Of a stretch of DNA of 64,000 bases, positions 27,748-64,000 are shown piece by piece (the first letter of the stretch is position 1; every line of letters begins with the position of its first letter). The stretch is taken from positions 2,673,038 through 2,737,037 of the forward strand of contig MU004232.1 of assembly GCA_010405405.1 (NCBI GenBank), in the 5' to 3' direction. Position numbers and translations under genes: made by a program. The notes below the pieces were generated by a model, which was given only the letters and a program-made list of their open reading frames with translations, was not told where the DNA came from and did no database searches. Source of the DNA: Microthyrium microscopicum (taxonomy: Eukaryota).

Positions 27748-27793
27748 GGGGTGAACATAGCTTTAAAAGCAAGTAACGATTATCTTTTTAGAG

Positions 27794-34959: not shown

Positions 34960-35549
34960 TGTGTTTGGTGATGTGAAGGAAGCTGAAGATGGATGCCTTG
35001 TGATGAATTACGATCACGATATGGAGCAAGGAGGGGTTGTACGACTGATACGAACGCGCCAAGTCTCTCCGTAATTCAAGTGAAAAATGTCCAGTTGGTC
35101 TTTACGAACCTGTAAGGTGAGGTCCAAGGATAGATACCTATAGAAACCGTATAAGACTGGTTGTTATGTGATGAAAAGCAGTGGCATCAGGACCAGCTTT
35201 TTGGCTGAACAAAATTTACTCCAGTAACGCTATGTCTTGGGACTTAAGCCGCTGCTTTAGGAGGTATTTGGGGTATTATTCGGGCGTAGAAGTACCTAAA
35301 GTAGCCCTAGCGTCGACTTAATAAAAGGGACGTTTACCCCTACTTATAGGATTAGGATTTGTAGTATATAGGGTACCCTTCTTAAATATTCTCTTCTAAT
35401 ATTAGTAGTAGTAAGGCTAAGATTATTAGGTAGTACTGCTAAGTAGCTTAATAGCTAGTTCCTTAAAGATATTTAAAGAACTTAGCTACTATATAAATTT
35501 CTACGAATAGATTATTATTAATATTATTAACTCTAGATTTAGTAGCAAA

Positions 35550-37900
35550 ATAGGTTAAACGAAAGTAAAGATAGTATACGCCTTTCTTGCTAAATATTAT
35601 AAGAAATAATGTTAATTATTAGATAAACTTAGGATAGTAAAGAAAAATTATAGCCCTTTAACGAAGAATAATATTAATAAGATATTAATTAGGTAGTATA
35701 GATAAGTAATAATCTTTACTTTTAATTAAAGCTTACTTTTAATTACTTCTTTCTAAATATTATAAAAATATATAGAAGAATACCTTAGAGTATTTAAAAA
35801 TAGCTAGTAGAGATAATATTATAATTTATCTTAAGTAGAATCTTAATAATTATACCTTACGTAAGAAATAGAGTATTTAATAAAAGTTTAAGTATTAGAG
35901 GTAGCTTTATTAAAAATTCACTTAGACATAGTAGTTAGAATTATAGGTATAAGAGGTAAATAACGTAAGTCTAACTTAATATTAAAGTAAAAGATAACTA
36001 GTCTAATAAACTCTAATACATTAATAGTAATTTAATAAATTTATATAACCTAATAATAAGTACTAAGAAAAAGCTAGTTCTAAATATTAATAATTTCTAT
36101 CTTATTAGCTACTATTACTAAGTTTTAGATACTTTAGTATTTCTAGATAAGTAATAACGTTTATAAGTTTACTTCTCTAATATTATTTATATATATACTA
36201 CTACTAGACCTAGTGCTCTAGTATATATAAAGAGGAATACTAAAGTAGTTATAGAGAATATAATTAGTCTTAAAGAAAGTATTAGTATAAACTTTAAAAA
36301 TAAGGATTTAAATAATCGTAAATCTATAAAGAAGCTAGATATACTTAAGTATCTATACTATAAAGATATTTAGCTTATTTTTCTACTAAACCTAGAAAGG
36401 GACTATAATATTCTAGTTATAGAAGTTAAGTTTAGATTTACTAAAGGCTATAAGTAGAGCTATAAGTAGTATATAGCTTCTATATTTCTAGTATTATACT
36501 AATATATAAATTAATAGGAAGATATTTTACCTATACGAGGTTAAAGACTTTATTTTTAATCTAGTTATCTATATAATTGTACTAGCTCTTTTTAATAACG
36601 CCTTTAAGTTAGGATTTTAAACTACTAAAGATATATTTAAACTTTAAGTAAAAAAGCCTTACTATTTTTTAAGTTTATAGTAAAAAAGCAAATAGAGAAA
36701 TAAACTAATTCTTTAGTAAGTAGTATATATTATAGATAATATAAAGACGTTATAATATAAGCCTTTTCATTATTATATATTCCTATATTATCTTTAAAGG
36801 CTTAGAATAATAGTAGGAATAATATAAATTCTAAATCTATATAATATTTAGCATAGTATTAATAAAAGAGTTTAAGATTAGTTTCCTTTTCTTATTATAG
36901 ATATATACTAAGTCTTATAGTTATTAGAACGTAAGGATAATTATAATAAGTTATAAGCTATAAGGATGCTAGCATCTTTTAAGCTTATATTAATAAACGT
37001 ATAATAAGCAATATATAGGCTATATTCCTTAGGCATCTATTTAAGAATGCTATATTTAAGGCAATTACTTATATAAGTTATAATATTAATCTATAAATAT
37101 TAACAAAACTTTTAGATTATAAAGTAGATTTACTTAAGTATTATCTACTTATTATAGAGCTTAAGAAGTAATAAGATACTTTATTAAAGTTAGTACGTAA
37201 TAAGTATTAGATACTTAAAAAGGCAAAAGTTAATAGAGAGCTATTATTTAAACTATATAAATAAGCCTATACTAACCTTAGCTAAATAAAGAAGAGCTTA
37301 CTTAGAGATAAGTAAAAGTAGTCTAAGGTAGAATTCTTTACCTATATTAAGACTAACAATATAAGGTAGTAACTTAACTTATTAGCTTAAAGTCTTTAAG
37401 ACGTAAATATTAACTTATCTATAGAAGTTAAGTATAGCTTAAAGGAACGAAAAAGAGTAGCTAAGCTATTATATAAGTCTCTTAGTATATAAAACCTAAG
37501 AGAAAAGACTAAGTATTAAATTAATACTATTAACGCCTTAGTATTTCTCTATTATAAAAAGGAGATAACTTAATAGTAGACTATACGTAATTACGACTAA
37601 GGCCTTCTTTCTACTCTAGAACCTTTTCTAAGGTCTAGCTCTAAGCTATTTCTTAGCCTAATAATAGTAAGCAACTTTAAGTATCTCTTTTATTTTTATA
37701 AGATAGGCTAAACTCTCTAGTTTTATCGTCTTTAAAAGGCAAGAGAGTATATTAAGCGCTAGTATCTTACTTTTTTTAGAATAGATAAGCTTATATCTTA
37801 CCCTAACGGATTTTATTACTTATTAAGTATTATCCTCTATAGCTATGCTTATTTTAAAAATTACGTTTTAAAGATATATAGATATTATTTTTTATTATAT
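35550..37900 (+). pseudogene. Starship captain: DUF3435 tyrosine recombinase relic with C-terminal Zn-finger-like region
   Basis: De-RIPped motifs: YTATRPGALV (36194-36223), LxYKDIQLIFLPNPERD.DILVMEVKFRFTKG (~36355-36450), PVIHMIALALFDDAF (~36560-36605), MGHKDAGIFQAYINERV..DVQAxFLG (36953-37035) and CLFC...HFKNH...VH (~37680-37880). Confidence 0.88.
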
Positions 37901-40900
37901 ATCTTAGAATAGATAGTTTATATTATCTAATTTTATTTATTAATACTATAATTTTAACTAAAGAGTAATAGTATATATTTAGTAGTTAGTATATATTTTT
38001 TTAATAGAGAAACTTTTATCTATACTAGAAAGTATTATATACTAATTAATAATAAATATAAAACTAAGGCTAGAATATATCTTTGCTTACTTTAAGCTAT
38101 ATCTTTTACTTTTCGTAATAACTATTAATTAAATACTATAACTTAAAATTCTTATATTACTAATAAGTATCTTATAGTAAGATGCCTATTATTATAGGGC
38201 TCTAAGTATATATTCTATTATCCTAAAACCTTAAATTACTAATAGTTTAGCTTTTTAGAAGGTATAACGCGTATTTTAGTAGAATAAGAGAAACTTATTT
38301 TCTATATATATTTATAACTTTTACTTAAATTATTAAATTTCTTTTAAGTACTTTTACGTAAGGAGTTGTCTTTTAGTAAAAATAATCTTAGTAAAGTATA
38401 GTTACTATAAGAGTATCCCTCTACGTTTTAAATCTACGTCTAGTTTATATATATTAGGAAGCTCTTTATATAAGAACTCTATCTAAGTAATCTAGCTATA
38501 GAATAAGAATAGCTTTTTAATTTAATCTTACTTATAGATTACCTATAGAGTAACTACCTATATAATGCTAGCATTAATACTCTTATTTAAACTTTCTTAG
38601 ATTTTTGCTACTATTTAAGTAAACTTAAATAGATTAAGTTAGAGTAGAATACTTATAGTAAAGCTTAAGAATTAATTTAACTTATTTATAATCTCTAGCT
38701 TTATAAATCTAGACCTAAATAAATAGCTAATAGAATTAAGAACGTCTTAACCTTTCTAGAATTTTAGCTTCTAATTCTAAGGCCACTTCTATAACTACTT
38801 AGTTAGACCCTAAAAACAAGACGTATAGATAAGCTATAGAAATTAGATAGATATTATTATTATTAGTATATAGATAGCTTAAGATAAAATATAAAATATT
38901 AAGTAGAAAAGTTTAGAATTATTAGGATATCTTATTTTTAATAGTATATATATTATTTAGGTTATTTCTACTATCTAAAGTCTTACTTACTAATATACTC
39001 TATATATATCTTAATAAGTAAGAGATCTATTTTAAATTACAAATTATATTTAAGACTAATAGTTATAATAAATTTTAGAAGAGTTATCCTTCACTATAAA
39101 GGTAATATTAATATAGAGAAGAAGAAGAAGAGATTTATTATAAAGCTTAATATATATCTATAACTTAAATTAAGGCATATAATAAGATCTATAGCTATTA
39201 TATCTTAATATACGCTATTATTATAAATTTATAAGTAATAGTTATTTATAATTAAGAAGATCTTTTTAGTCTATTTCTTACTTATACTTTATCTTCTAAA
39301 TTAACTTTATCTTTTTATGCTTTTCTCTAGCTTCCACTTCTTTACTACTATAACGTTTAGATAACGTTTTTTAAAGGCGTAAATCTACTTTGCTCTTAGA
39401 GAAGATAGTAAAACTATTCTAAGATTTTTTTATTATAAAATATTATTACTAAAGTTTATTATGCATCTATAACTAGGATTAATTCTAGTAGCTACTTCTA
39501 CTTAGATCTATTAAACTATCTCTTATTCCTTAGATTCTAATAGTTTCTAAGAATTTAGTTGTACTATAGATTATAATTTACTACCTTTTAATTGCCTAAT
39601 TAAGGTAGTTTTTAAAACACTATAAGCCTCTATATATTTATAAATTAACCTATATTTATAATTATAAAAAGTATTTTAAGTATCTTATAGATCTACTTTA
39701 TTTAGTATCTTTAACTAGAGGTAAATTAGATATAAATTACGATTATTATAGTAGTTTAAAGGAGATCTAATTCGTAATCTAGAAGAGGGTAGTTTAAATC
39801 CTTCTCCTATTTTACTTTCTTTTTATACTTCCGCGCTATTTATAGACTTTAGTCTAAATACTTAGCCTTTTTATAATTAGTACTAGCTTTAATTCCTAGT
39901 AATAGAATATATACCTATTATTAAATTCTAAATCTTGTATTAGAAGCTACTAATTAGTTATCTTCTTAAAGAAATTTATATTACTAGACGTTAGTAGGTT
40001 AGAATATCTATTAACAATAAAGGTATTAAATTAAGCCTTTATAGCTACTTTTAGTTTATTTAATTATTTTTAGTTCTTAGCTTTACTTTTATAATAATAG
40101 TATACTAAAAAGAGTATATAATTACTCTCTAAAGTGCATTCTTATAGCATTTATTTATTATATACTAAAAATATTCATTAAGTCTACTACTATGAATTAT
40201 AATAATAAGATATCTAGTATTACTCTTATTATAGAAATTAAGTAGGAGAAGAAGATAACTAACTAATATTAGAATAAGAGGTTTTAATAGAGAAGAAATA
40301 CGCTCTTTAATAAAGATTATACTTTAATAAGTTTAGAAGCAAATATTTATATTCTAGTCTAGTAAAAAAGAAAGCTTTTTTGTACTAATTTATTTAATAA
40401 TCCTAAATAGCTACTATCTTTAGAGAATATTATTAGTCTAAAATAAGGTTAGAGATTCTAAAAGGTAGTTAACCTTTTTTTATATAAGAAAAATATTACT
40501 TATTGCCCGTCTAGTATTAATATAGTAGCTTAAACTCTTACTCTATAGAAGCAAAGTAGATTAAGGATAATAAATAAGTTCTTACTAAGCTAGATAATAC
40601 TTAGCCTTTATTAGATAATTCTTATAAGTAAGGTTTAGTAAAAAGTATAACTAAATCCTAGTCCTAATACTAGTATAATATACTAAGAACGTAGAACGTA
40701 TAAGCTACTTTAATTACCTTACTATACTAAATACTAGGATTTATATAATATTAGGTTCTAGGACAAGGAATAAGCATTATACTCCTAAGATAGTTAATAA
40801 TATATAAAAGCCTAGCGTTTTTAATAAGTAGATATTATAGCTTATATAAAATTAGAATAGAGTATAGTGCTTATTATTAAAAAGGTTTTATAGCTATAAG

Positions 40901-43900
40901 GTCTTTTATAGAGAAGAAGTAGGTATAGTAAGAACGTTAGTTAATACTTTATCCTTACTAATCTATTTCGTAGAATTTTAACCTAGCAGTAATAAGGTAA
41001 ATATATAAAATTAATTTAGCTATATAATACTCTCTAAATAGCTTATTAGAAGTAATATTTTACCTACCTTATACTAATAACTAAAATTAAATCTATTATT
41101 ATAATTTCTTACTTACTATTTTATTATTCTATAATAGCTTTCTATATCCTCCTATATAGAGCTTATTCTCTTACTTATAATATTATACGACTAACTTATA
41201 AGATCTTTATTAGGTAGAATAGTACATTTTAGTTTAAGCTTAATATTCTATTCGCTAAGGTTAGAAATATAATCGCGTTTAGGCTTAACTTATTCTATTA
41301 TTTAGTTATTTATAGAGAGTACGTAAAGTTAGTTACTTATAGAGAATAGACCTATAATTTATACGTTCTTTATAAGACTATTTATTCTAGATAAGTAGCT
41401 TTTAGTTTAAGCTATCTTCCTTTCGTTCTTTTAGTAAGAGATACTATAGTAGGTCTATTTATCATAATAGAATATATAATACTAACTAAATTTAATAGGC
41501 TTAGACGTTTTATATTATTATAAATAATTACTTACCTATTTAGTATTACTTAATCATACTTAGTACTTATTAACTATATAGCATAGTTAGAGTTATTAAT
41601 CTAATTAATAGTTCCTTAATCAACGTATAAAGATAAGCTACTTAAAATATTCTATATTAGCTAGTACTAGGGTAGTAAGTACTATTAAAAACATAAATAT
41701 TAATAATAAGCATTTCTAATTCTATAAAAACTTAGAGTCTTATAACTTTGTTAACTAGTACTAAGATTACTATAAATAGCTTTTAAAGCATAATAAGTAG
41801 TAATTAGAATATAGTCTATTTTATATCTCGTCCAACCTTAATATCTAGAGTAGGGAACAAGTAGGATAAAGTTCCTATAGTAGCCTTTATTAAGGTTATA
41901 ATCGCTATAGCTATAATAATACTCCTCCTAACTAATAGTTTAGTACTTACCTCTTAGAAATACTAAAGCTACCTTAGAACAGTTACTATATAACTATTTA
42001 AGGATAATTTAAATAATTCTTCCTTTTTCCTAATAGATTTTGTACTAGATAATAGTAGTCTTAAGGAAGAGTATTTAAGAATAGGCTACTCCTTACTACT
42101 AAATTTGCCTTATATCTCTTTTATAAGATTAACCACTAATAATTTAGAGATATAAATAAGAGTACCTAGAACTCTACCTATTTTACTAGTATCTAGTATT
42201 ATATCTATTAAGGACGATTAGCCTAATTAGGCTATTAGCAATTAGTTATCTAATATAGTTTCTACTACTAGCTCTACTATATTATAAAGGCTAATAAGTA
42301 GTAAGTAGTTTTAACGCTTATAATAACTATATTTCCTTAAATTTTAGTTCTTCTTAGTTTCTTTATATTATTTAATAATCCTCTACCTATATATTTTAGA
42401 TTATATTTTAAAGGGCTTGTTTAGGCAAGGTATTAGTTAAAATTGTTTTTACTTTATTTAATTTTATTCCTATTATACTTAAATATATTTCTATGCCTAA
42501 TTATATTTCTATACCTAATACTTATCTAACCTATAAAGGTAATAAAATATATTTATTGCTTAAGCTTCTAATAGCGTACTTGCTAGCAAGTTATTTAGTA
42601 ATATTAGTTATTAAAGAGCCTTAAGCGCTAAAAGCTCTACTTACTTTACGTTATAGATATTTAATCTAGATAACTTTTACTCGTAATACTACTATAATTA
42701 TAACGATACAAATAGCAAACTTAGAAGCATATTTAATCCTTTCTTTTACTATTTAAGCTATTTATAATATATAAGGTAAAGATATAATTAAAGTAATATA
42801 AACTTAGACTAAACTTCTAAGGTTATCTATACTTAGTAAGTAGCTAATTAAGGAGTAGCCTTAGCATTAGCAAAATTAATAGAGTATTTATTCTTAGCTA
42901 AAAAGTCTAATATTTTCTCTTAGGGTTACGTTTTTAGCTCTAATAGCCTAAAAAGAACCTCTACCTAAGTTCTATAAACGTATTAGGTTAAATTAGGAAG
43001 CGCTATTAGTAATATATAAAAGATAGCAAACTTGCCTAAAATATTCCTTAATACTATCTCTTTTTAGATAATAGTAATATCTAATTCTAAGTAAAGTTAA
43101 AAACTATTCTTAGAATCTATAGATTTAAGGAAGGTAGAGTAATATAGCTTAAACGAAGAGTTAAAAGAGCTAATTATATAGTTATATAAGTCGGATATCT
43201 TAAATATTAAAGTAGTTACTACTCTATAGACTCTACTAGCTAGCTTTATAGTCTTCCTAGCTAGCTTCCTATTAATATAGAAATCTAGTACCTTATCTAC
43301 TAATATAGTAAAGAAAATTATATAGTACGCTATAAGAAGTTAGTCTCTCTTAGGCTTAGTATCTTTTTTCTTTCTATTAGGAACTATAAGTATTACATTT
43401 CTATAGTTTATATAGTATAAGAATAAAAACTTTATTTAGTTATAAGATTAATTATTTTTATAAGTTAATTAAGCTATAGTACTAAATTCTTATTAATAAA
43501 AAGTAGCCTTAGCGTATTAAATTTAGTAGTTAGGTTTATAATAATACTAGTTAATATTAAGACTATAAAAGAAGGGTACTAGTCCTTACTAGCTCTTACG
43601 TCTAGTATTATTATTGCCTTATACTCTTTTCTCTTTATAGGGATATATTTAGTTTATTAACTTAGTATTATTCCTAAGTACTTAAATAAAAAGAAGAAGA
43701 AGATAGTTAATCTAAAGCAAAATTAAGCTATACGTTCTATTCTTTAAAATTAGATAGGAAGTATAAAAGTAAAAGTATTTTTTATTTTTTATATTAAGGC
43801 TATTTTAGGATATAAGAGCTTAATTAGGTTTTTATATATAAATTTAATACTACTTAAATAAATTTGTTTATACTCTTTATTTAAATAGGATTTATATTAT

Positions 43901-45399
43901 AGCATACCTTCTACTACCTTAATTTACTTTAGATAACTTATAACTACTCTTTTTAGTTAAATACTATTTAAACTTTTAAGGCTAAGTAACATTCTAGCTC
44001 TAAAGTTAGCTATTAGAATATAGATTATTAATAGAAATAGTTACAAATATTTAATTATATAGTAATAGCTATTTTAGAACTCTATTTAGCTAGAAAATAT
44101 AACTAAGCAAAGCTATTAAGTTTTCCTTACTAAAAAAGATATTATTAAACTTTATAAGATTATATACTCTACTAATAAGTAGACGTTACTACTATCGCTA
44201 GAGCTAGTAATTTACCTATAAATAGAAATATACAAGACATATATAAAATAACGTACATTATAATTCTTTTCTATATCGTATAAAGTAATCTTTAGAATAA
44301 TTAATAGCTATAAAGTTATCTATTACTTAGTATACTAGATATAGCTTTATACTCCTAACTTAGTAAATCTACTATTATATTTATATAAGGCTAGTAAGAA
44401 AAATAATTTTATTTCGCTATACTACCTTTAGAATATAAAAGAATCTATTAGAATAAAGTATACTTATTACTTTATTACTAATATAAAGCTAAGCCTAAGC
44501 TATTACTAAGAGGTAAATTTTAATACTTATACTTTCTAAGAGCTATTTACTAACGCCTAAGTTAAGAAAGGGCTTTTTTAATAGCTAGCTATGCTTAAGA
44601 ATTATAACTAAGACTAGTTAATAATAGATAGAGAGCTCATAGTAATTATAGTTTCCCTAAAAGAAAAGTAGAGTACTCTTAAAGTATTAGGTACTACTAA
44701 GAAGGTGCTAGGATATATATTAGTAACCTAGTTATATTACTAAGAATAAGATAGCTCTATTAAGACTTAAGAGTTAAATTAAGCTTTCTATAAGCTAAAA
44801 CAATATTCTATTTAAGTATAAATTCTATAAGATAATATATTAGTATAATGAGTTTAGAAAAGAGACGCTAATTAAAAAACCTATTTATAACTTTAATCTT
44901 TTTTTATAATACTAACTATAATATTTTATAGGTTTATATTTACTTAGCTAAGGAAGGGCTAGACATTAGTTAATATTATTAACTAAATAATACTAAAAGT
45001 ATAACAAAAATCTTATCCTAAAGGTTAAGGTAAGAATTTAAGATTTTATAATAAAACTAAATTGTTTTCTAGAATATAGTAATTTATAGACTTAAAGCAC
45101 AAGGCAGAAAGTATTAAGTAGGCAAAACTAAGACGTAATTTTAAGTAGTATAATAATAATAGTAAGAAGTAATATACTTTACTTAAATACCTTAAAGCTA
45201 TAAAGGAGTAGTTTAAGAAACTTAGAAGAGGCATTAATATAATTATTTAGTTAAAAAGGTTTAGTTAGAAATATAACTATAGGTTAGAAATATTAGTTAT
45301 AGCTTATAGATTATCTATAGTTATTATCTCTATATCTATTTCTAAGCTTATTTATATATATAATATAAACTAAGATTTTAATTCTATTATACTTTATAA

Positions 45400-46450
45400 C
45401 TTTAAGAAATTATACTTAGATAGATTATTTAAACTTATACCTATTATAGTTGCTATAAAGTCGTACGCTTTATAAGACTATTATAATAAGGACAATAGGC
45501 TAATTTTAGATTTATATAATGCGTTTTTATTTATTAACTTTATTAATATATATCTAAAGCGTAATATATAGTACTTTTTTAACTTAAAGACTTTATTTTA
45601 ATTAAGCTACTAGTAGTCTTTAATGTTTATTAAAAATATTAATACTTAAATCGTTATACTATAATATAAACCTACTAATACATATTTTAGCCTTTATATT
45701 TATTAAAATAGAGCTAATATTAAACTCTTTATAATATAGATACTAGGCTATTAAGAACTAGGCACTAGAAATAATCTTTTATTTAAGGTTAGTAATTATA
45801 TTAAATATATTATTCTTATTTTTACCTTACTTATAATACTAGCTAATAACTTTTTATTAAGATATTAGTAATATTAATAAATATATTAAAGAGATATATT
45901 AGCTAACTTAGAGATAACGTATATAGTGTTTTCGTTGCTAAGTAACTTATAGACTACTAATATTAAATTATATTAATAATTAAGAAGATTATAGATTTCA
46001 TAATCTTAATTTGTTCTTATACTTTTTAAGGTTTTTATACTAAAAGCTTATCTAGTAGCTTAATTTAACTTTATAAGATAAGAAGTAGATACTTTAGCAT
46101 GTTCTATATTCGTATTATTACTACTAGGGCTATAGTCTTTATAATTTACTTATAAAGCGAAAGTAGTCTTCTTTAATATAACTTCTATTAAACCTCCTAG
46201 TATAAAAGAGAATTTAGTATTATAGTATTTTTTAATTCTATATTTTAGAGAGAGAATTATATTAGTAGGTATATACTCCTTAGCTATAGGTTTAGTTATA
46301 AAATTAGTAGGGCATTAAGCTCTCTATAGGCTATTATTATGTAGTTTACAAATAAGAGGCTTTAAAACCTTTATAGGTCTAATGTTTGCTTATTTTCTAC
46401 CTATAGTTACTTTTAATATAGTAATACGTAATAGTTTAGCCTATTTATCT
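45400..46450 (-). pseudogene. Protein-kinase-like cargo gene relic
   Basis: De-RIPped H.YNLVSVVHESLGNENTVYVISELADVSLQHICQC.QYLDEKLLASIV, an intron, then IISGAQFL....LHH..F.VSSILMN...EI.I (~45680-45990). Gene ends are approximate. Confidence 0.55.
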
Positions 46451-47679
46451 TTATTAGTCGTTATTAAAGTTATATTATCTATAAAATAAGTATATTAATT
46501 AAGCTAGTTATCTTTATTAGAATTAGTAATAGTCGTCATTAGGATAGGGTTATCTATAAAATAGGTATAGTAGTTTAGTTACTTATACTATTATAATATT
46601 AGTAAACTTATTATAGCTTAATTACAGTAGAATTAGCAAGATGCTATAAAAATATTTATATTTTATATATATAAGGACTATATATCTAGTACCTTAGGTA
46701 AGGGCTATAAGAAGCTAGCAAAGCCTAAAACGTTTACCTTATAGATATCTTAGAAGGATTTTAGTTACTAAAAAGTATTTTACTAATAAATTAAATTTTA
46801 GCATTTATATTCTTAAGAGTAGCTACTTAAGATGTTTATTAGTACTAGTCTAGACTATAAGCTACTAATATAAAGCTTTATATTTAAGCTCTATTTTTAT
46901 TACTATACTTATAGATATCTTTTCGCGTATAGTATTTAGATAGTAGAGATAGTTCTAAGTACTAAGATCTAGCGATAAGGTGGGTAATTTAGCGTCTTTT
47001 AGCTAAATTTATATAGTTATTAATATTATAATATAGGTTTTAAAGACGATAAAGATAATACTTAATCCAAAAGTAGTATAGACTCTAAAGGACTTTTTCT
47101 CTTTACTTAAAGTAAGGAAGTGTCTTAAAGCTATTATAACTTACTAAGCTATAGAGATTAACTAACTATAAGTTAGTTTTATAATTTAGGCTAGAATAGT
47201 AACTTAGAATATAATATAGTAAGAGTAGATATAAACCTTATACGTTTTAGTTTATACTATAAGTATAATATTAAGGAATAAGCTTTAGAGGACGCTAGGT
47301 ATATTAATATTTTTACTAAGGATTTATATTTAGCGTTTAGGACTCTAGGGCTTTTAGTAGATATAAATTTATAGGTATATTTTAGAAAGAAAATAATAGT
47401 TAAAAGCTAAGTATTATCTAGAGATTACGCATAATATAGATGTAATTAAGGAGGAATTATAAATAATTAAAGTAGTAACTAGAAGTAACAAGTAAGAGCC
47501 TAAACTAGCCTTTTATACTAAATCTATTACTTCTATAGATAAGTAAGCTTTCTTATATTAGTAAATTTTATTCTTATATATAGCTAGTATCTTGTATAAT
47601 TAATTAATTATTTTAAAAATAATAATATTATAAAATAACTAATTACTTAGAAACGTAAGTAAGCAATTAAGGAAGCAAA

Positions 47680-50050
47680 ATGTCTTAACTATTTTAGTAT
47701 TGCTTAGGTATCTTTAGAGTCTCTATAATTTTTAAGTAATAATTTATAGTCTCTTAACTAAAAGAATTTAGAAAGGCTTAAAGATATTTATCGCATAGAA
47801 GGCTATCTATATAATTATTCCTAGTATTATATACCTACTATAATAGATTAATCTACATTAAAGTAGTTATTTTAATTAAATGAATATATAGAAAGCTATC
47901 TACTTAAAAAGGAAAAGAATAAGCTTATTAGATTAAACTTTTCTTTAGATCTTAAGCTATACTATTTATAAGAAAAATATAAAGTATAAGCTACTAAGGA
48001 ATCTAGTAAAGTTATAAGAAAGTTGCTCTAGTAAATAATAATTCTATACTCTAATAGTAAGTATCTTTATATAATAAATACTTTTTAAAGCTTACTAAGA
48101 TACTAGAAATTAGTACTAAGATTAAAAGATCTTTAAGTAAAGATTTTAAGAATAGTACGTAGTTCTTAGACAAAATAATTTACTAAAATATTATAATATA
48201 TTAATATCTTAAGTCTTACGCAGAGTATTACTAGTAGTTGTGCCTAATATAGTATAAAGCTAATATACTATTCTAATTACTTAAATAATAATATCTAGCT
48301 TTTAATTTAGCTCTATAAAACTTATTTTAAATACCTACTTTATTATATAATTTCTAGCTAATATTCTAGCTAAAAGTATTTGTTATACGATGTAATAAAG
48401 TAATAATAAAATTATTTACCTTAGGTAGTAATACTTACTTTCGCGTAGGAGTTTCTTTACTATATAAAGTATATTTTTAATACTTAGTTATATATTCTTA
48501 GTAGCAATAAGAATCTTATAAGAGATATAAACGTAGAGATAATACGTAAGCTATAACTATAATATTTAAAAATATATAAAGGAGACTAGAGCTTCATTTA
48601 TAATGCTTTATAAAATAACTAAATCTTCCCCTCTATTATAAACTCTTTAGTTAGAGATTAGATTTTTTATTAAGTATATAAGCTCTAGTATATTATACTT
48701 AGCCTTTTTATTCTATAATAGGACCTAAAGTATATAAAGCTATATATAGCTATAGTACTTAAACTTTTATAGCTATATAAAAGAAAGTATTATAGTTATT
48801 ATACTCTATAATAAATAGCAAACTTAGTATTCTATAGTTTAGATTTAAATATAAATAAAATACTAATCTAAATATTAGAATTATTTTCTATAGACTAGAA
48901 AATATATAATAGAAACTCTTAACATTAAGTTAAGATTACCTTTTAGTAGCTTTTCCTATATATAATAAGATATATATTTAGTTTAACTAAAGAAAGTCTC
49001 TTAAAAGAAAAAGGCTAGCTATACTCTATCTTAAAAGCTTTAAATAATATTATATAGTCTTATTTTACTCTACTAGCCTCTAAACTTAGTTTTAACTTAC
49101 TTAAAATTAGAAGAAGAAAGCAAAGAGACTTATTTATTATAAAGGTATACATATTATTATTAAATCTACTAGTAAACTATTTCTATAGCTAATAATTTTC
49201 TTATTTAATTTAGGAAGTTGCAAAGCTATATAGAAACTTAACTAAGGATCTAACGCTAAGAGGTAACCTAGAGTTTATAGTAAATAGTCTAGGTATAGTT
49301 ATAAGTAGACAATATAGAAAATAAGGTAAAAAGATATATAATTATAATAGGTTATATATATTTCTAAACGTTTTGCGCTAGCTAGTAGACTTATAAGGAA
49401 GTTCTATATTATCATTATTTATTTACTAATTAGTTTTTTATACTTTCTTTAGCAATATTAATAAGCTAAGTATTAAGGTAATTAGTAAGGACTATTCCCT
49501 CTTATTATAAGATAAAGATATTAATATAAGCTTAATAGAAGCTAGCTTAGATAATAGTAAAGTCTAAAGCTTATAAGGGAATAATAGCTTAGAGGATAGC
49601 TATAATAATAACTATAATAATTTTGCCTTCTTAGAAGTACCTAAATCTATATATTAATTCGTAAAGTAGCTAGTATTATCTAAGTAACTTAGCTTAAATA
49701 CTAGTAAAAAGTTAGAAACTCATCTTACAATATAATATAAGTTTAAAGATCTAGACTTAAATATTTAATAAATTTATATTATAGTAGTAAGTAAAGAAGT
49801 AATTAAGAATAAAATTAAATATATTAATTATACTAAATTTAAGGATAAGCTAAGATATTTTAGCTATATTATAGTAGTAGTTAGTACCTCTTATACTATT
49901 ATGCATAAGGAGGTATTTAATAGAGCTTTTAATAATAAAGATTACTATATATATATAACGAAGTAGCTTTAAATTCATTACTATAAAGGAACTAGTCTAA
50001 AAAGATTATTCTTTATAATAGAGAACTCTTTAGTTATTTTTAAGCAATAT
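47680..50050 (+). pseudogene. DUF3723 Starship accessory gene relic
   Basis: De-RIPped motifs: KNLERLKDIYRIEGCL...HYVPAII (47762-47845), CLQGKHRVQAA...WWTVVLY (~47960-48050), IPSLFTL..DLKYIE.C (~48690-48745), QLFLY.MRH (~48945) and FH.FFG (~49440). Confidence 0.8.
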
Positions 50051-50754
50051 AAAGCTAGATAATTTTTAAATATTATAAGCTTTAGAACGTTTTTATTAAA
50101 AGACTAGTATTTCCTAGCTATAGTCTATAATATAGAAATATTAGATAAATTTTATATATTATAAAGTTATGCTTTTTCTAAACATTAAAGGCTTAAAACT
50201 ATTCCTATTAAAACCTATTTTATAATAGAGAAATACTAAATAACTTTTAAATAATATAAGCTAATCTATATTTAGATTATTTATAAGTTACTACTTTTTT
50301 AAACGCTACAAGTTCTAGTAACGTTTATATTAAACGACTAGTATATATAGAGTATATTTTATAATAAAGAAGTACTAAATAGCTTTTAAACGTTATAAAC
50401 TAAGTAGCTAAAAAGTAGGGTAGATGCTTTCTATCTTATATAGTTCCTTACTATAATTTTACTAGAAAAAGTTACGTAATGCTACGCGTAACTAATTAGA
50501 GTAGCAGACTTAAGTAAAACTAATAGAACTTATCTTATGTCTAATGCTTAACTAATTAGAATAGCAAATATAAAGAATATATTCTTATACGTTAAAAGGA
50601 CAGAATGCAAGATAAAGGTATATTCTAAAATTAAAGTATATAAATAGAAGCTTTAAGACTAAAGTATAGAAGGTTATTTAGTTTTTTGCTACTAAAGTAT
50701 AAAGAGTCTTATAATAAGTCTTAAGGTCTTTCCTTAAAAATAGCACTATAAATA

Positions 50755-50968
50755 TACTATTTCTAGTTCTAAAGATGCATCTTTAGCTATACCTAAATAG
50801 GTAAAGAAGGTTAGTATATTTTACTAATAATAGATTATAGGACCCTTTTAGATAATTATATAATTATAAATATAATAGAGAACCTAGCAAACTAGTAAGT
50901 AAGTAAGCTATAAGATATACTCTAAAATAGGTTTAGCTAAAGGTACATTTTTAGAACTAGAAATAGTA
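50755..50968. mobile_element. MITE (~214 bp) with ~40-bp TIRs and TA flanks, nested in the Starship
   Basis: TACTATTTCTAGTTCTAAAGATGCATCTTTAGCTATACCTA closely matches the reverse complement of TAGGTTTAGCTAAAGGTACATTTTTAGAACTAGAAATAGTA. TA is present at 50753-50754 and 50969-50970. Confidence 0.7.
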
Positions 50969-53900
50969 TATCTCTACCTTACTTATTAAACGCCTTTACC
51001 TTCCTAGTTATTAGGCCTAGGGCTAGCCTATACTATTTATACTATTACGTAAAACTATTTCTACTTTACTACTTTTAGCAATTTACTAATTTTAGCTATA
51101 TAGCAAAAGTTAGAATATCTTTATTACTATAAGTAGAGGCATTAATATTGCTAGTAATAATTAGGAAGTAAATTAGAAAGAGAAGTATAATTATAGTAAG
51201 AGATAATATTAATAAAAAGTTTTCTTTCTTCTCTATATATAAATCTATATATTTATTAAAATTAAGGATAGATATAAGATATATCTATATATATTACTAC
51301 TATTATAGTAACTCTATTTAATATAAATTGCTAATAATCTAGAGTAGTACCTAGATCTTCTTTAAACTTAATCTATTAGATAAGGATATTAAGTCCTAGC
51401 TCTAAGGAATCTAAGAGCTCTTTATAGTACTTAAATATAATAAACTAAGGAGACTATTTATAGAGGATATTATATAATTTATCTTTAGCTATAACTATAG
51501 CAATATACTACCTTAATAAAGTAAAAAAGAAGCTTTCTTACTCTAAACGTAGAATAGGTAGTACTATTATCCTAAGTAGTTTATTTAGTAGTTTATTTAG
51601 TACTTAATTAAAGCATAAAGACTTAGCTTTCTTACTAGCTAAAGTATACTAAGTCTTAAGGTCGTGCTTACAAACAAACTTATATTTAATAAACTCTACT
51701 TCTTAGTCTATAATTAGCAATTTAATAAAATAGTAAAGCCTTATCCCTTAATAGAGGTATACCTAATAGACTTATATATTATAAATTAACTAAATTTTCT
51801 TAAAATTAGAAAACTACTTCTTACTCTATAGCGTTAAAGAGTATATAAGATATTATTTATTAGTAAAAACTCTAGTAGTATCACTAAAGAATATAAGAAA
51901 TAATAATAAGATACTTTATCTATATATAAAAAGCGTTAGCCTTAAGCTATTTATTAAACTATTATTATTTGCTATACTATTAGTCTTTAAGTAAGGCGTT
52001 AGATTTTAATAATTAGATACTAATATTCTATTATATTTAATTAATATAAGTAAAGATAGATAGAGAGATAAAGTCTATAGCTAAGAAAGAAGACTTCTAG
52101 TAGAGAAGGTATAGAAAGGTAAGAAATAAGGCTAGTTTTAGTAAGACTACATATTACTATAGATTAGAATAGTTAAGAGATAGGTTTTCTTAGCCTAGTA
52201 GGGACACTTAGCTATATATAATAGTATTTTCTTATCCTTAATTATAAGTTAAATTAAGTTATAGTATTATAATCTAGGTTACTATATAGCTAATAATTAG
52301 ATATTAATAATAGGCTTAGATAATTACTATTTTACTAAGTTCTACTTACTTTCTATAGATAGTTTATAAGGAGTATAAAGAAGAATATAATTAAATTAGG
52401 CAATTAGCGTTATAAACTAGAGCTATAAAAATAAGACTTTTCTTTATTAGTATTTATATTACATAGACCTTACTTCTAATTACTTTTAGCGCTTCTTTAT
52501 ATATATAAATAATAACTTAATATATTTTTACTTACTTAATAAATCTTATATTATAATAGACTTAATTAGCTTAAAATAGTATAAAATATAGATATTATAG
52601 AGGAAGTATTAAAGTTAACTTATTAGCTTAACTAGGTTTTATAAAAATTATAAATAGATTATTAAATTATTCATTTTGCTTAGAACTAGGCTACGTAGTA
52701 GCATAAGAATATTAATTATAATAATAAGTCTAAATAGTTAGGACCTATTAGCCTACTATTTCTATATTTAGTATATTTAATAAAGTAAATTCCTTATAGT
52801 TATATTACTCTTAGCTAGCGCTATAGCATATTTTTATTTTATCTAAAGTAGAAATAATAATTACTAGGATATTAATATACCTATACTAGAATTATATATA
52901 TTCTTATTTACTACTACTAACTTACTAGGGCTTAAGATTAGCCTCTACTATATATAAATTACTTATATACTAGGAAGCATAATTTAAAGGTTTAACCTAC
53001 TCTTTTTAATTATCTAGTATTTTACCTAGTAGCCTACTCTTCTTATCTATATTAGCTATAGTGCTTACTCTTTATCTAGGATACTTATAAAAAGAGTTTA
53101 GGCTTCTCTTAACCTAAAGGAGTTAAAGAAATAAAATACTAGTAAGGATAACTATTTTTAAGTAATTAATAAGCTATTTATACTAGGTTTTAAAGATTTT
53201 TAGAAGTACTAGTTTAAGGCTTTCTAGCTAATAAGGTACCTAAATAAGCTATTTACTTAGTATAAAAAGTATAGAGAGATAGGAGTAGTTATTACTACTT
53301 AGTATACAACTAAAACTTTAAGTTTATTTCTATATAAGAATGTTACTCTAATAAAATTTTATATTATATTAGTAATTCTAGTTAACTTAAGTATATTACG
53401 ACTACTATTATAATTACGTTTAACGTCTTTATAATACTAATTTTATATTTCTTTTTATCTTAAATAACTATAGCACTACTATAAGTAACGCTAATTATAG
53501 TAGATTAGTTAGTAGTAGTTACTAAGTTTTGTATCTTTCCCTATATATAAAGTACTATTTATACTATTAATACCTAGACCTTAAGCTACTTTTATAATAA
53601 TAATATTTAATATATATTATTAAATTTTAGTCTAAAAGGAAGCTATATTAGTACTAAGATTTAGCTTAAAAGACTATAGTTATTAGGTATCCTTTATCGT
53701 TTTAGTACTTACTTAAATTAATTAATTAAAAGAAGCTTATTACTTTTATACTTCTAATTTGCTTTATCTATTATAAAAGCTAGGAAGTTATAATCATTAA
53801 ACCTTTTTTATAATAAATATAGATATTACTAAGGAATCCATATTAACTATAGAGCTATTAGAAAACTACTAGAGCTAATTACTATAGTTTTATTATTATT

Positions 53901-56900
53901 ATAGCTATGCCCTTAAGTTTTATATATATAAGCTTCCTATTAGTTTAATAGAATTTATTACTTAATATATTACTTAAGTTCCTAATAGTCTCTTAAGTAA
54001 TATAATAGATTATAGTACTAAATAAGAAATTAAGGAGTTTTATAGATATATAACTAACAAAATTAGATTATTATAGCTTAAAGATACTTTTATATAGACT
54101 ATACTACTATTTTTATTAAAGAAGTTACTTATAAAAGGAAAAGTATAAATTTTAGCTCTTATTATACTAAACCTCTTTAATTTTTAAGATATACTATAGA
54201 AAGACTTTATTATACTTAGAGTTTTCTTATAGTATAATATACTATATCCTTTCTTAGACTTACTCCTTTTAATAGAAGATAATTTTAATAATACTTAGTA
54301 GCTTATATATAAGAGTATATAGAGAATTAACGTAGATTTTAGTAGGCATTAAATAGCTAGAATACCTAGCTAATAGCTAACATAAACTAAATATAGCTTA
54401 TTAGTAAACTTATTCTACTAGTCTTAGGCCTAATAATTCTAGACTATAAGAATTAAAGAAGGGAAAATCTTTATAATATTCTTAATAATCTAGTAGTCTT
54501 CTCTTAACTTATATAAATTATAAGAATAATTCTTAAGTTCTTTCTATTTAATTAATACTTATTATAGAGCTAAACAAAATATTATAAAAAGAAGATATTA
54601 TAATTAATATCTTTTAGGTTACTACCCTAGATTATTATAAAATTTATTAGGTATATTTTATATAGTACTATATTAAACACTTTTATAGCTACGTCTTAAT
54701 AAGCTATTAGACCTTCCCTTCTAATTATAAGATCCTCTTTATATATTTTACATAATCTTATAAAGAGACTAGTAAGGACTATACTTTATTAACCTTTTAT
54801 TTATAATATATTAATTTTTATTTTATAGTATTTCTTATTAATATATACGCTATTAATCCTAGTTTAATTTTAATAGTTTTAGGCTCTTCTCTACTTGCTT
54901 TATAAAAAGTTACATAGTTCTAATAAAGCTTAACTACTACGGCGTAACTTATAATAATAATAGTACTTTTTCTATATATTTGTCCTATTAATAGGGTCTA
55001 TAATTTCTTATATTAATAATTTTCTTCTTCTATAGACTTTAAGCCTTATAAATCTATACTCCTTTATTATAATCTAATATATTACTATTCTTAGCTTAGA
55101 ACACTTAGGTATTCTTACTAAAACCTTATAAGCTCCTTTCTTTTTTTATATAATACCTTGCTTAATAAATTAAAGGTATATTTCTTACGCTTTATTTATA
55201 GTTTTATTAAGAGAAAAAGTAGCACTATTTAAGATATATTCTACTATAAATTTAGACTTAGATTAGTATCTTTACATCTAATTATATTTCTATATAGCAT
55301 TATATTTTGCTTTAATATAGGTTTACTTAATAGCTTCTTATTAAAATAGTCTTAGTACTAGCTTAACTTTGTTATGCTTTTTAGTAATAGGTACTAGTAT
55401 AAAGAGTAAAGAAAATAAGCCTTAGAGATAACTAGCGCGTAGAATTATTATTTTAGAAAGATAGTAATTAAAGATTTAGAGATAGAGTCATTAAGATTAT
55501 TCTACTAGTATAGTTTAAATACTTTATAACTTTAATATACTAAGCTACTTATCTTATTAAAAGATTAAAAAGAATATCTAGTCTACTTTTTATGCTTACT
55601 AATTAACTAGCGCTAACTAGTACCTTTATTATAATATGTAAGCTATTAAATTTATAAGCTAAGAAATTTGCTTTACTATAGCTTAGGCTTTTCTCTAAGA
55701 AATAAGCTTATTTACTATTATTAGAAGAAGACTTAATAAGTCGCTAAATAAAGGCTAATAATTATTAGGAATAAACCTACTAAATAGCCTATTAGTTTTA
55801 GGCAAAATTAAGTACTCTAAATAAATTCTATCTTACTTAGAAGAGTCTATTTAGTATACTAGCCTAGATTATTCTAATTTTTAGAATATAGTATTAATAT
55901 ATCCTACCTAAGAACTCCTCTTTAGCGCTTAATTAAAGATTAGCTATAATATAGTAGTTACTTAGAAAATAATATACTTTAGCTAGAGAATACTTAATAA
56001 TCTAGTAAATATACTTATTACTTTATCTATAATCCTACGTAGCTATTTATGCTATAATCTATAACTCTATTATAGCCTCTCTTCATTCTAAGTATAATAT
56101 AATAGCTAGGCTAAGAATAACTAAAAATTACTAGAGGAAATATATCTTTCTAGACGTAATAGATAAATCTAAGGTATTTTAATAGTCTATATAAATTACT
56201 TAGAATAATAGGCTTAGTAAAAGTAGTATCCTATTATAGCTAATAAAATTATACTATATAATATATAATGTATTAATAAGCTTAAAGTAATAAAAATAAA
56301 TTTAACTAATAATCTATAGACTCTAACGTTATAATATATATAGAAGGTTAATTACTACTTTAGAATTGCCCTATTTTCTAAAATATATAGCTTTTTTTAT
56401 TAAAATAAGAGCTTAGAAAGGAGTAGTTACACGCGTTTTAATAAAAAGCGCTTATAATTATTTATATACTTCTAAGAAGTAACCTTTAAACTATAAGACT
56501 TTATACTAAAGTAGGGCTACTTTTATAGCGCTAATATTTTATAAAAGTATATTAGTCTATCTATTTAGTTTATTATTCTTAAGTAAAGTTAATATAGATT
56601 ATAGATTCTCTTAATCTATTTCTATATAGGCCTTATATATAAGTAAATTATAAGGGTAAGGGATTTAGCTAATAGCGAAGAGGCTCTTAATATTTTATAA
56701 AGAAGGTAGTAGGCTCTAGCTAGTAAATAGAAAAAGATAAAATAAAGTAAGGTAATAAAGATATAAGTCTTTAGTATAGCGCTTATTATTTAGAGCTATA
56801 CTAATAATCTCTACTTCTTAAAGGACTTATTTCTTTTATTTAATATTACTAAAATATAATATTAAGAGATATACTTTAAATACTTTAGACTAGATAGCTC

Positions 56901-59085
56901 TTAAGAGAAGTCTATAGTTATTATTTAAATGATAAATTTAGGTTTTAAAAGCTAATATAAACTAAGAAAGGTATAGAGATATAGACGAAAATCTATTAAG
57001 TAATTAATATATAATTAATAAGTAGCAAGTTAAAGCTTACTTAAGAAAGAAATAGAGTATAAGCTATATTTTAGCTATTAGAATAAAGACCTCTAGTAAT
57101 CTAATCTTATTCTCTACTTTAGTTTTAATAATACTATTTTTAAAGGTAATTAAATTAGCTTACTTAAGATTTTATAAAAGTAATTTAATTAGCTTAATTT
57201 TAAGTTCTCTACGTATAATATTCTATTACGAATAGCTATAGTAAATAGAATTAGAGAATAAGGCTAGTATAGAAGGAAAGAGGCTATAGAACTAGAAAAG
57301 GATGCTTTTTAAGATATCTCTTTTATATTTTTTATTATAGCTAAAAGTTTTATATATAGTTTCTAAATTATAATTTATAAGCAAGATGTAGCCTTCGTCT
57401 AAACGAACTTTAACTAACTTAAGGAATAAATCCTACTTATAGAGAAGATTAAGAATAGTTAAGTCCTATCTATTCTAAGTTTTAGAATTATAGTATTTAT
57501 ATAAAAAGCTTTAAAGTATCTAAAATACATATATAGTTACTAATAGCTAAGCTATAACGTAAAGTTAATAAATAGATATACTATCTATTATAACTTTAGT
57601 TAGCGTAATCTAATAGGTAAACAAGGTCCTTATATAGTAGTAACCTAGTAGTTACGCAACTAAGGTTCTAGCCTAAAATAGATAGCTAATAGAGGATCTT
57701 ATTTAATTGCTTAGCTCTTAGGATTAAGTAAGGTAGTTTTTAGTTATCTAATAACTAGCCCTACTTAGCTAGAAGATTATATAGCTCTTTTACTAAGTAA
57801 TTAAAGGCAACTTCTATTATAGTATAATATAATAGAAATAATAAGAGAAAAAAGCGTTTTAGACTCTTATTAAATTTTTATTAAGTTAGTTTCTTAAGGT
57901 CTAAAATTTTCTCTCTAATATTAGTAGATATTATTAGTATAAGAGTCTAATTTATTATTTCTTTTATACTTTATAAAAATAAGAAACTAATTAACTCTAT
58001 CCTAGAATCCTAATTATTAGCTTTAAGAATAGCTTTAACTATTTTTTATACTTAATTAAGCTAATTCTACTTCTTATCCTATAGGGTCTAATTATAGTTT
58101 CTTAATAATTAGGTTATAAGCTCTTAGGCAGGTTAGGGAATAAGAATATAGATAAAATTATTAAGATCTATTTAAGTAGATAATACTATAGTTATTTTAG
58201 GCTATTTTATTTTGTTTATAAAGACGTAATATATTGCTTTTTATTTTTATATACGCCTTAGTATAGAGTATTTAATCCCTTACTTATTCTTAAAAGGTAT
58301 AGCTTAATAGACTATAGCGCAAAGCTTAACTATTATTATTATATACCCTAATTTTAGGAGCTATTTATATAACGTAAGTAGTAGCTATAGTCTAGGCCAT
58401 AAGTAGAGTATCTAGGTAGCTTAAGCTTATAAACACTTGCCCTAGGTAGGCTTAACAAGTTAGTACTATATATTATACTACTATAAGCTAAAGTTAGTCT
58501 ATAATATTAATAGTATAAAATTTCTTAGCTATAAATATTCTAATAAAGTGCGCCCTCCTAAAAAGTTAGAATAGAAAATTCTTAAGTTAAATTATAAGAA
58601 AGTAGCGCGTTAAGAAAGTTACTACCTACGCTTAGCTTAATATAATAATAATATTATAAAGCATACTTTACATAAATTCCTTATAAGTTAAAAGATATTT
58701 AGTAGTACTATATTTATTATTATAGAGTTTAGAATAGTTAGAGGCTATAGAAGTTTCTTAATTAATAAACTATTAGTCTACGTTAGTAGATATAAGACTT
58801 AAATAAAGACCCTCTACCCTTTTATAGTAGTATTAGCAGTTTTTATATAAAGAAGTAGTAGGTAGTTATTTATATTAAGCTAGTTAGTAGTCTTTAAAAT
58901 AAGAAAGATACAAACGCTTACTACTACCTTAGGTATAGCTATATTTATTAGATATATTCTTACTTAGCTTATTAGTAACTAGAGTTTTTAGCGTCTATAT
59001 TCTTTAAAGGATCTAAATATATTTATCTTGCTTTAGATAAGCTAAATATAAGTTGCTTAGGCTAGCTATAATATAGTTGCTAGGT

Positions 59086-59130
59086 TAGTAATATTATTAT
59101 TAATAATATTATTATTAGTAATATTATTAT
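59086..59130. repeat. 15-bp tandem repeat x3 (TARTAATATTATTAT)
   Basis: Directly visible. The period is a multiple of 3, compatible with a former coding repeat. Confidence 0.6.
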
Positions 59131-62100: not shown

Positions 62101-64000
62101 TCTATAAACTAATAAACTAGTTTATTACTTTATAATTTTTAGAAAAGTTTTATAGTTTATATTATAAAAGTAATTAAAATTAATCTATAGTTTAAATTAA
62201 ACGTAATAATCTAGAACTATTTTAACTAATTTATCTTTATTAAGTACTTCTAGTACTAGAGATATTTATTATTAGTATTATATATACTTTATATATTGCC
62301 TTAATATCTAGGATAAGTTAAATTAGGTTCTTTCTAGCTACCCTTAGGTTTTTTAAGGCTTTATTAATCTTACTAGTAATTTAGTTAAAAAGACATAGAA
62401 TATAGTAATACTAGGCGGTAAGCTTTACTATAAAGTTAGCTATTATACTTATTCCTTTTATCTTATTAACTCTTCTTAGAATGTTCTATAAAGAGAATTT
62501 TATATTAATAGATTTCTTATACTTTAGAACTATAATAAGTCTTAAATTAATTTATTTAAACTTATAGTTATTAACGATTTAGATTAAGTATATACTTAAT
62601 ATTCTTATTATAACTCTTTAGTATATTATAATATTTTAAATATAGTTTTTCTTCCTAGATAAAGACCTTTGCTTACTAAGAATAAATATATATTTTATAA
62701 TTTGTATTTAATTCTAAGTTTAAGAAATATTTAATAATAAATAGAAAGTAGTTCTATAACTAATATTGCTTTAATATAGAGACTTCGTATAGAAGTATTA
62801 GATTCGTAATAACTCTTCTTCTATAAATATTCTAAATAGTAGCTATCTTATAATAACTAAGCTACTAATAATTTAGTAAGAGAAGGTATTAGAGCTTAAG
62901 ATAGCTATATATCTTAAATAACTACTATTACTATAATATTATAGAATCCTATTTAGGATATACTTATAAAATAATACTAACTAATATAGTAGGCATTAGC
63001 TATAGTATTAGCTATACTTATATTAAAATTTAAACCTACTCTTGCTCTATATATTAGTATTAAGCATTAATACTTAAATTTATTTTCCTTTAGTACCTTA
63101 TAGTTAGTAGGAGTTAGTATCCTAATAAATTCGCTAATAAAGTACTTTATAATAATTTTAAGATCTCTATCATCTTTAATATAAACTAATAATTTTAGGT
63201 AATACTAAGTCTTAGTTTAGAACTATAAAGTTCTTTTAGTACTACGTATTTAGTAAATTACAAGCTTTAAATACTAGGAGAGTACTAAATAGATCTTATT
63301 AATATAACCATACTTATTACTAGTTATAAGATCTATATTATACTTAGTAATATATAAGTAGGCGTAAACTTTTATTTAATTTTAAAGATATTTAGTACTT
63401 TTTTATTACTAATTTTATAGCTTTACTTTTAGAGCATTATAATTTAGTAATAAATAACTCTCTTATTAAACTTTAGATATAATATAATAAGGTAATAATT
63501 AGAATATAGATAAGATAATAAAATAATTTCTTTTATTTTTTTAGTTATATATCATAAAGTTCTTATATTACTAGTCTAATTATATACTCTTATTATTATC
63601 TTTAGAATATAGATTAACCTTTTTTTCTTCTTTTCTTTTCTAGGAATACTACTTAAGTATCTTCTAACGTTAATATTAATCGCTTAAGGTTCATCTTAGC
63701 TTAACTTCTTATTATCCTTTACTTAGTAGTATTAGGCAGCTTTATAAAATTAATCTAAGAGTTAAGCAATTTATTTAATAGTTACGTTAGTAGTTTAATA
63801 GCTTTAGGTAAAATACTTTTATATAACTTAACTACTTTATTAATATAAAGCTATTTAATACTACTTTTGCAACCTTTATAGCTAGTAGCCTTAAAGATAG
63901 TAGTTAAACTAACTTTCACGTTTACTAATTAGTATAGAATTTCATAGTTCTTATTTAGAAAAAACTTAGGTATTACCTTATATAAATTATAAATATAGGT

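Follow-up and report, generated by a model that had tools for sequence, protein, structure and literature searches.

A RIP-saturated relic of a Starship captain-type recombinase gene in Microthyrium microscopicum

Eleven captain families have been published. HhpA of Hephaestus is described, in the account given in PMC10104507, as a DUF3435 protein whose gene is the first at the 5' end and points inward, with a recognisable catalytic pentad and with DUF3723 nearby. The same account reports that duplicated Hephaestus was RIPped by C>T/G>A changes along its length in Paecilomyces crosses. The captain pseudogene of Wallaby carries many premature stops according to PMC11162782, which also states, in the part bearing on this question, that the starfish survey includes pseudogenised captains and that gene finders miss or filter such copies. 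Degraded regions termed 'Derelict' are described as having no DUF3435 in the corresponding section of 10.1101/2021.12.13.472469. RIP of Starships, captain pseudogenes and degraded Starships are therefore already published, and our literature search found no paper joining deRIP with a Starship captain.

Here we describe the full-length remains of a "captain" tyrosine recombinase gene of the DUF3435 type at 35550-37912 (+) in a window of 64,000 nucleotides, the whole stretch of M. microscopicum contig MU004232.1 that was analysed. Compared by description, the relic resembles HhpA in its DUF3435 domain, its apparent place as the first 5' gene pointing inward, its recognisable pentad and its DUF3723 neighbour, but it is dead, with 63 premature stops and with the second catalytic Arg and the His lost. 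It shares its many premature stops with the Wallaby captain, as far as the published description of the latter extends. Whereas the RIP reported for Hephaestus was experimental, confined to a single cross and partial, that of the window is saturated (92% fewer CA/TG dinucleotides). In contrast to the Derelict regions as described, the full DUF3435 outline survives here.

The RIP-saturated block and its left edge

The relic lies near the left edge of a block of AT-rich DNA that extends over at least 28.7 kb and has its right end beyond the 64-kb window. The features of the block and its border are as follows.

33802-34959, minus strand: GFA-domain gene in the left flank
35270..64000, no strand assigned: RIP-saturated AT-rich block, candidate Starship-like element (composition, dinucleotide indices)
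35270..35549, plus strand: leader, from RIP edge to putative start (RIP-edge mapping)
48061..49453, plus strand: DUF3723 relic in two frames (Pfam DUF3723)

The GC content per kb is 19-30% from 35001 onward versus 39-53% in 1-26000 and 30001-35000. The TpA/ApT ratio is 1.65-1.66 in the block (1.66 in 35301-38000) and 0.71-0.77 in the flanks, while (CA+TG)/(AC+GT) is 0.11-0.15 (0.11 in 35301-38000) and 1.27, respectively. The usual RIP thresholds are about 0.89 for the first index and about 1.03 for the second. Thus, relative to its flanks, the block combines the high TpA/ApT and the low (CpA+TpG)/(ApC+GpT) of RIP-mutated DNA. The left edge is sharp: CA/TG dinucleotides are dense up to 35269 and fall beyond it to 12.3 per kb, 92% below the 147.2 per kb of the flank, which places the RIP edge at about 35270 with a precision of about 20 bases. 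No ORF of at least 80 aa occurs in 35300-64000. The DNA of the block, including the captain relic, carries saturating RIP.

To the left of the edge lies ordinary ascomycete DNA, with the GFA-domain gene and MFS and MatE transporter pieces among others. A further RIPped element lies 5 kb leftward; it has terminal inverted repeats and matches MULE weakly. One tRNA was reported by Rfam and none by ARAGORN.

The captain start lies approximately 280 bp inside the RIP edge and the gene, on the plus strand, points into the block. The 5' terminus of the element should lie within the leader 35270..35549. When the RIP-collapsed 22-mers of 35200-35560 were compared with the upstream sequence of six relatives, up to 900 bases each, no terminal motif was matched, and no direct or inverted terminal repeats of the block were seen within the window, which includes its left end only. 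Among the matches listed from the contigs of five sequencing runs, no piece bridged the insertion as an empty site would, and the captain region gave only 20-40-base pieces on other contigs. A single X1 contig matches 31000-40000 without any difference and may itself be the source. The contigs of the organism-B sequencing run gave three short identical pieces, all from the flank.

The captain relic traced exon by exon

When its 74 stops are written as X, the single frame of 35552 scores 42.8 bits against Pfam DUF3435 (gathering cut-off 25.8), with an E-value of 4.4e-11. Used as a query against 1.84 billion representatives, it retrieved 66 proteins with E-values of 1e-3 or lower, led by one at 1.2e-42; residues 2-307 of the best relative, P0002, align to query positions 469-772. 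A profile built from seven full-length relatives, all sharing the DUF3435 layout with a C-terminal finger, was run on the three forward frames and yielded five colinear pieces with alternating frames. The original query did not include the frames of exons 2 and 4, whose matches are therefore independent evidence of homology. In a control run on the entire window in six frames, this profile gave no other match except one at iE 5; within the 64-kb window, this six-frame search likewise found no second captain copy. The sole PDB match of the profile is the XerA tyrosine recombinase 5hxy (E 0.0034). The initial annotation had placed a captain-type gene relic at this position, and the DUF3435 score together with the five colinear pieces, far above chance, bears this out. 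The spliced gene model comprises the following features, all on the plus strand.

35550..35705, plus strand: exon 1, the weakest-supported, its putative start codon now ATA (35550); profile 14-46 at 35589-35687, a weak match (iE 0.59 alone)
35706..35775, plus strand: intron 1 relic, 70 nt, GTAATA...ATATATAG, the sole GT..AG pair joining both frames
35776..35964, plus strand: exon 2; profile 50-121 at 35752-35964, iE 3.9e-6
35965..36016, plus strand: intron 2 relic, 52 nt, donor GTAAGT intact, acceptor now AA; border predicted
36017..36465, plus strand: exon 3, with Arg I and the Lys of the catalytic set; profile 120-262 at 36011-36457, iE 2e-24
36466..36517, plus strand: intron 3 relic, 52 nt, GTAGTA...ATTAATAG, phase as in relatives L002, L003 and L005
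36518..36876, plus strand: exon 4, with the YxxR box; profile 265-376 at 36513-36848, iE 2.6e-16
36877..36920, plus strand: intron 4 relic, 44 nt, donor now ATTAGT, acceptor TCTTATAG; border predicted
36921..37912, plus strand: exon 5, with the MGH His site, the nucleophile Tyr, a coiled middle, a double Cys/His finger and the stop; profile 389-602 at 36929-37573, iE 6.6e-27

The coding frame changes four times, at the introns, so that no single frame spans the gene, and each change is accompanied by 44-70 extra bases. A metagenome scan with a five-sequence alignment provided 15 un-RIPped relative loci, on whose frames the same profile was run. Seven of these loci cover the greater part of the gene, and in them the frame breaks near profile position 386 in all seven, near 121 and near 50 in six of seven each, and at 266 in three of seven; L002, L003 and L005 break at all four positions, as the window does. 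The break of the relatives at profile 46-58 matches intron 1. The intron 2 donor GTAAGT at 35965 follows 'EVNN', and the donor of L003 follows 'EVND'; exon 3 then begins with YIN, as in L002, L003 and L005. After its AG, exon 4 begins with K-I-F-x-L-Y-E-V, as in the relatives including L003, in agreement with their break at profile 266. Intron 4 is in phase 1, as in the same three loci, and its removal restores the constant spacing from the RR box to GTQ.

The spliced model comprises 2145 bases, or 715 codons (714 and a stop), and forms one profile domain in which positions 14-602 align to residues 14-602 (271 bits, E 9.4e-85). This residue-for-residue alignment leaves no net indel and no frameshift, in line with the earlier proposal that RIP acted on an intact gene. 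The start at ATA 35550 lies where the initial annotation expected it, by extrapolation only, in that profile position 14 aligns with residue 14 counted from 35550. At the other end, the likely stop is the TAG at 37910-37912, which coincides with the C-terminal end of P0002 and displaces the gene end formerly set at 37900.

Two of the eight splice signals are non-canonical, namely the AA acceptor of intron 2 and the AT donor of intron 4, and the model presumes G>A at both, one of them in a context that RIP rarely uses. The exact splice borders are predicted ones. Other placements were rejected. With intron 2 running from 35956 or 35965 to 36001, the exon ends no longer coincide with those in L002, L003 and L005 (five codons longer). 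For intron 4, a GT..AG pair at 36881-36927 shortens the product by two residues and 36856-36920 shortens it by seven codons, both with exon ends off those of the three loci.

Catalytic positions, damage and the limits of reconstruction

The positions of the R-K-(H/Y)xxR-H-Y pentad follow those given for captains in the relevant parts of PMC10104507 and PMC11162782, and map to the relic as follows.

36206-36208, plus strand: pentad Arg, AGA, in literal TTTRPSALV
36443-36445, plus strand: pentad Lys, AAA, in literal FTKGYK
36840-36842, plus strand: H/Y position of the (H/Y)xxR box, Tyr TAT (codon reading)
36849-36851, plus strand: second catalytic Arg position, stop TAG, where relatives have Arg
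36959-36961, plus strand: pentad His (of MGH), read as Tyr TAT against His in relatives
36986-36988, plus strand: nucleophile Tyr, TAT (codon reading)

The pentad codons are the family residues or C>T/G>A derivatives of them. The motifs quoted by the initial annotation are recognisable in position, but they are de-RIPped readings: the literal DNA encodes YTTTRPSALV (36197-36223), FTKGYK and VISY...IF*AYIN (36950-37000), with Tyr in the finger. An active captain has an ORF with an intact pentad, whereas the relic has 63 stops and has lost the second Arg, the His and all eight Cys/His of the finger. The (H/Y)xxR box carries Y in all full-length relatives; because H and Y are inseparable after RIP, the YxxR/HxxR clade marker is unreadable in the relic. 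Taken together, the Pfam score, the full-length colinearity and the pentad codons all agree with descent from a Starship captain, and we consider it likely that 35550-37912 (+) is a pseudogene of the DUF3435 Starship-captain kind, inside a large RIP-killed element.

The 63 premature stops among the 714 codons of the spliced model comprise 40 TAA and 23 TAG. In 35301-38000, counting triplets in any frame, there are 209 TAA, 124 TAG and no TGA, and the flank at 1-25000 has 464 TGA. The earlier observation that the stops can be reverted holds for 63 of 63, but it is true of every TAA and TAG by construction; the stop columns were therefore checked against the relatives instead. Of the 52 stop columns covered by at least three relatives, 13 have Q as the majority residue, 10 have R and 3 have W, and the remaining 26 are spread over 14 residues. 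Q and W together account for 31.6% of the relatives' residues at stop columns versus a background of 5.9%, and R for 18.5% versus 7.5%; this excess, rather than revertibility itself, constitutes the actual support. Where the window has Tyr, the relatives show His at 18.5% (background 2.9%) and Cys at 6.8% (background 1.4%). All nine conserved C-terminal Cys/His columns read TAT or TAC in the window, and in the finger CxxC..HxxxxH + CxxxxC..HxxxxH (37682-37879) each of the eight Cys/His positions is now Tyr.

Identity to the relatives about doubles when C>T/G>A is allowed, rising with P0004 from 27% to 54% over 562 positions (shuffled 17%, z 25) and with P0002 from 35% to 67%. All of the 25 best relatives with at least 100 aligned positions give z >= 10.6 against shuffles, and RIP compatibility reaches at most 54-74% in the nearest relatives. 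The mixture of Q, R and W at the stop columns and the Cys/His-to-Tyr changes in the finger rule out native AT-rich or organellar DNA as the source of the pattern. An altered genetic code with TAA/TAG as sense is ruled out by the same mixture in the relatives and by the finger, which would still be destroyed by its Cys/His-to-Tyr changes.

Under a strict CpA/TpG context, 914 of the 2145 bases and 430 of the 714 codons have more than one possible state before RIP; under a relaxed rule, 673 of the 714 codons are ambiguous. RIP is many-to-one, so that His/Tyr and Cys/Tyr are inseparable in the relic. From a single RIPped copy one can read the protein's outline but not its sequence, and the captain may have carried missense or small in-frame changes before RIP. 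The proposal that the gene is reconstructable, perhaps even resurrectable, is thus sound as regards its complete outline and overstated for a single copy with 430 of 714 codons ambiguous. Intact captain relatives already number thousands, and a reconstruction would have to rest on relatives.

Starship context, rival readings and proposed history

The DUF3723 relic lies 10.5 kb downstream of the captain on the same strand. Its piece at 48440-49453 covers profile positions 177-508 of 508 (E 5.5e-24, 85.2 bits), and that at 48061-48411 covers 77-183 with an E-value of 0.034, below the cut-off. DUF3723, ferric reductase, patatin-like and NLR genes are listed as Starship auxiliary families in the pertinent parts of PMC11162782 and 10.1101/2021.12.13.472469, and DUF3723 provides such a co-located gene here. 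Six-frame Pfam scans of 35300-64000 detected no ferric reductase, patatin-like or NLR domain, and no Pfam domain other than DUF3435 and DUF3723 in these 28.7 kb. With only two domains found, the unity of the block rests on its uniform composition alone. In the metagenome, the intact relative L002 is followed by a HET ORF (E 4.5e-35) and L005 by a ferric-reductase ORF, both likewise of auxiliary families.

DUF3435 and DUF3723 without defined target-site duplications constitute a 'Starship-like region' according to the definition given in 10.1101/2021.12.13.472469, as far as the text of that source bears on the matter. By published definitions, the block is a Starship-like region and not a proven Starship, since its ends are undefined, terminal repeats and an empty site are lacking, and its right end is outside the window. 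We infer that the block is one Starship, that the gene is its captain and that a second copy once existed; RIP depends on a duplicate, and the window contains no second copy. In its most specific form, to which we assign about an even chance, this interpretation takes 35270 to beyond 64000 as one fully RIP-saturated Starship, whose captain belongs to a four-intron, double Cys/His-finger lineage with intact soil-metagenome members next to genes for HET-NLR and ferric reductase. The RIP edge, sharp to about 20 bp, and the lack of frameshifts would make it a delimited, datable fossil, silenced in a single sexual episode, whose triggering copy has since been lost.

An alternative that we regard as unlikely, yet deserving real weight, holds that the relic is a solo or non-captain DUF3435 copy in a mosaic of unrelated RIPped repeats, the block being an ordinary AT-rich repeat compartment. 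No termini, empty site or right end are seen, 28.7 kb yield two recognisable domains only, and many DUF3435 genes lie outside defined Starships in the literature as far as it was covered by our sources. The RIPped element with terminal inverted repeats 5 kb leftward would likewise fit a neighbourhood that collects repeats. However, the RIP edge lies only 280 bp upstream of the start of an inward-pointing gene, a DUF3723 relic is present on the same strand, and the closest intact relatives adjoin HET and ferric-reductase genes. Furthermore, no reverse transcriptase, integrase or DDE transposase was detected in six frames of 35300-64000.

Two other readings concern the gene itself. Decay by frameshifts or deletions before RIP, with the four frame changes being indels, could explain why two of the four putative introns have no canonical GT or AG today. 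We consider it very improbable, since the frame changes carry 44-70 extra bases and occur at the positions where intact relatives break with canonical GT..AG, and since removal of the introns leaves no net indel against the profile. The colinearity without frameshift, the shared intron positions, the RIP-type stops and the doubling of identity all favour the earlier view, in that RIP probably acted on a gene that was still intact. Least probable of all, and barely credible, is a tyrosine recombinase of the Crypton or DIRS class. These are eukaryotic transposon tyrosine recombinases too, and the sole PDB match of the profile is a generic Xer recombinase, but the DUF3435 layout is not expected of them. 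The only Pfam family matched by the relic is DUF3435, above the cut-off, and its relatives have the DUF3435 layout and the finger. DIRS has a reverse transcriptase, while six frames of 35300-64000 show neither a reverse-transcriptase nor an RNase H domain, and DUF3435 captains are set apart from Cryptons and DIRS in the section of 10.1101/2021.12.13.472469 that treats them. The initial attribution to a Starship rather than to Crypton or DIRS is therefore favoured by the domain content of the block, that is, Pfam DUF3435, the DUF3723 neighbour and the lack of a reverse-transcriptase domain in the frames scanned.

Under the Starship interpretation, the gene before its inactivation would have been a normal one of about 714 codons in five exons with four short introns. 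Its product would have combined core-binding and catalytic domains (with Arg, Lys, YxxR, His and Tyr) with a double Cys/His finger at the C terminus. The gene would have faced inward from a point approximately 280 bp within the left end of a large element. That element, an active Starship whose 5' end held this captain, may have inserted upstream of the GFA gene, and at some time two or more copies of the element would have been present in a nucleus entering the sexual cycle. RIP would then have turned nearly every CpA/TpG along the whole element into TpA, giving the captain its 63 stops, converting the second Arg to a stop, the conserved His to Tyr and the finger Cys/His to Tyr, and damaging two splice sites. 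The partner copy may afterwards have been lost, or may lie elsewhere in the genome. Given the RIP damage in the captain, the gene and the element are dead and have no present function, and the lack of frameshifts since RIP suggests little later decay.

The value of the finding is modest. Applied frame by frame, a profile of relatives recovers the exons of a captain one after another despite saturating RIP, and this approach helps to annotate Starship fossils skipped by gene finders. At this locus, the relic marks a likely old Starship insertion, some 260-310 bp upstream of a GFA-domain host gene.

C-terminal finger of the captain lineage and related database proteins

The captain lineage terminates in a conserved motif pair, CxxC..HxxxxH followed by CxxxxC..HxxxxH, which corresponds to positions 37682–37879 in the window. 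The same pair is found at the C-termini of related database proteins, including P0002, P0003, P0034, P0035, and P0040. The pair resembles two C2H2-type fingers; a PDB profile search returned a YY1 finger as its sole match, which was insignificant (E 8).

Many captain-related database proteins (P0002, P0005, P0008, P0013, P0020, P0022, and others) have as their first residue either the MGH-motif Met, directly 3′ of intron 4, or the Met directly 3′ of intron 2. The entries seem to be ORF calls cut short, made on fungal genes that contain introns. Since the calls are seemingly truncated in this manner, DUF3435 entries in such collections would often be fragments.

Metagenome relatives of the captain

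Two metagenome contigs carry an intact captain relative, with the following ORFs located 3′ of it, within about 1–2.3 kb:

L002, 6299–7944: HET-domain ORF, with an additional weak TPR match
L005, 7679–8074: ferric-reductase ORF

Both ORFs belong to Starship auxiliary gene families. Three other metagenome contigs (L013, L014, and L015) share an identical short captain fragment at about 2881–3224, in which positions 11–50 of the profile built from seven full-length relatives are fused directly to positions 352–407. This arrangement looks like a captain with an internal deletion, occurring in several samples.

Sequencing depth and a separate RIPped element

In X4, one of the runs from the likely source sample, word depth across window positions 31000–36700 was 293 for the flanking contig versus 4–25 for the contigs over the AT-rich captain. 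This gap most likely reflects a sequencing bias against AT-rich DNA.

To the left of the captain lie the following features:

25565–30139: RIPped element distinct from the captain block, GC 20–31%
27797–27889, minus strand: Rfam tRNA match within this element, 43.8 bits (cut-off 29)

The element is bordered by 72-nt terminal inverted repeats with 86% complementarity, and its minus strand contains a weak MULE transposase match (E 0.0077, under the Pfam cut-off). The element itself probably represents a Mutator-like transposon that is now dead. Despite the Rfam match, ARAGORN called zero tRNAs in the entire window; the matched segment may be a tRNA gene with mutations or a tRNA-derived repeat.
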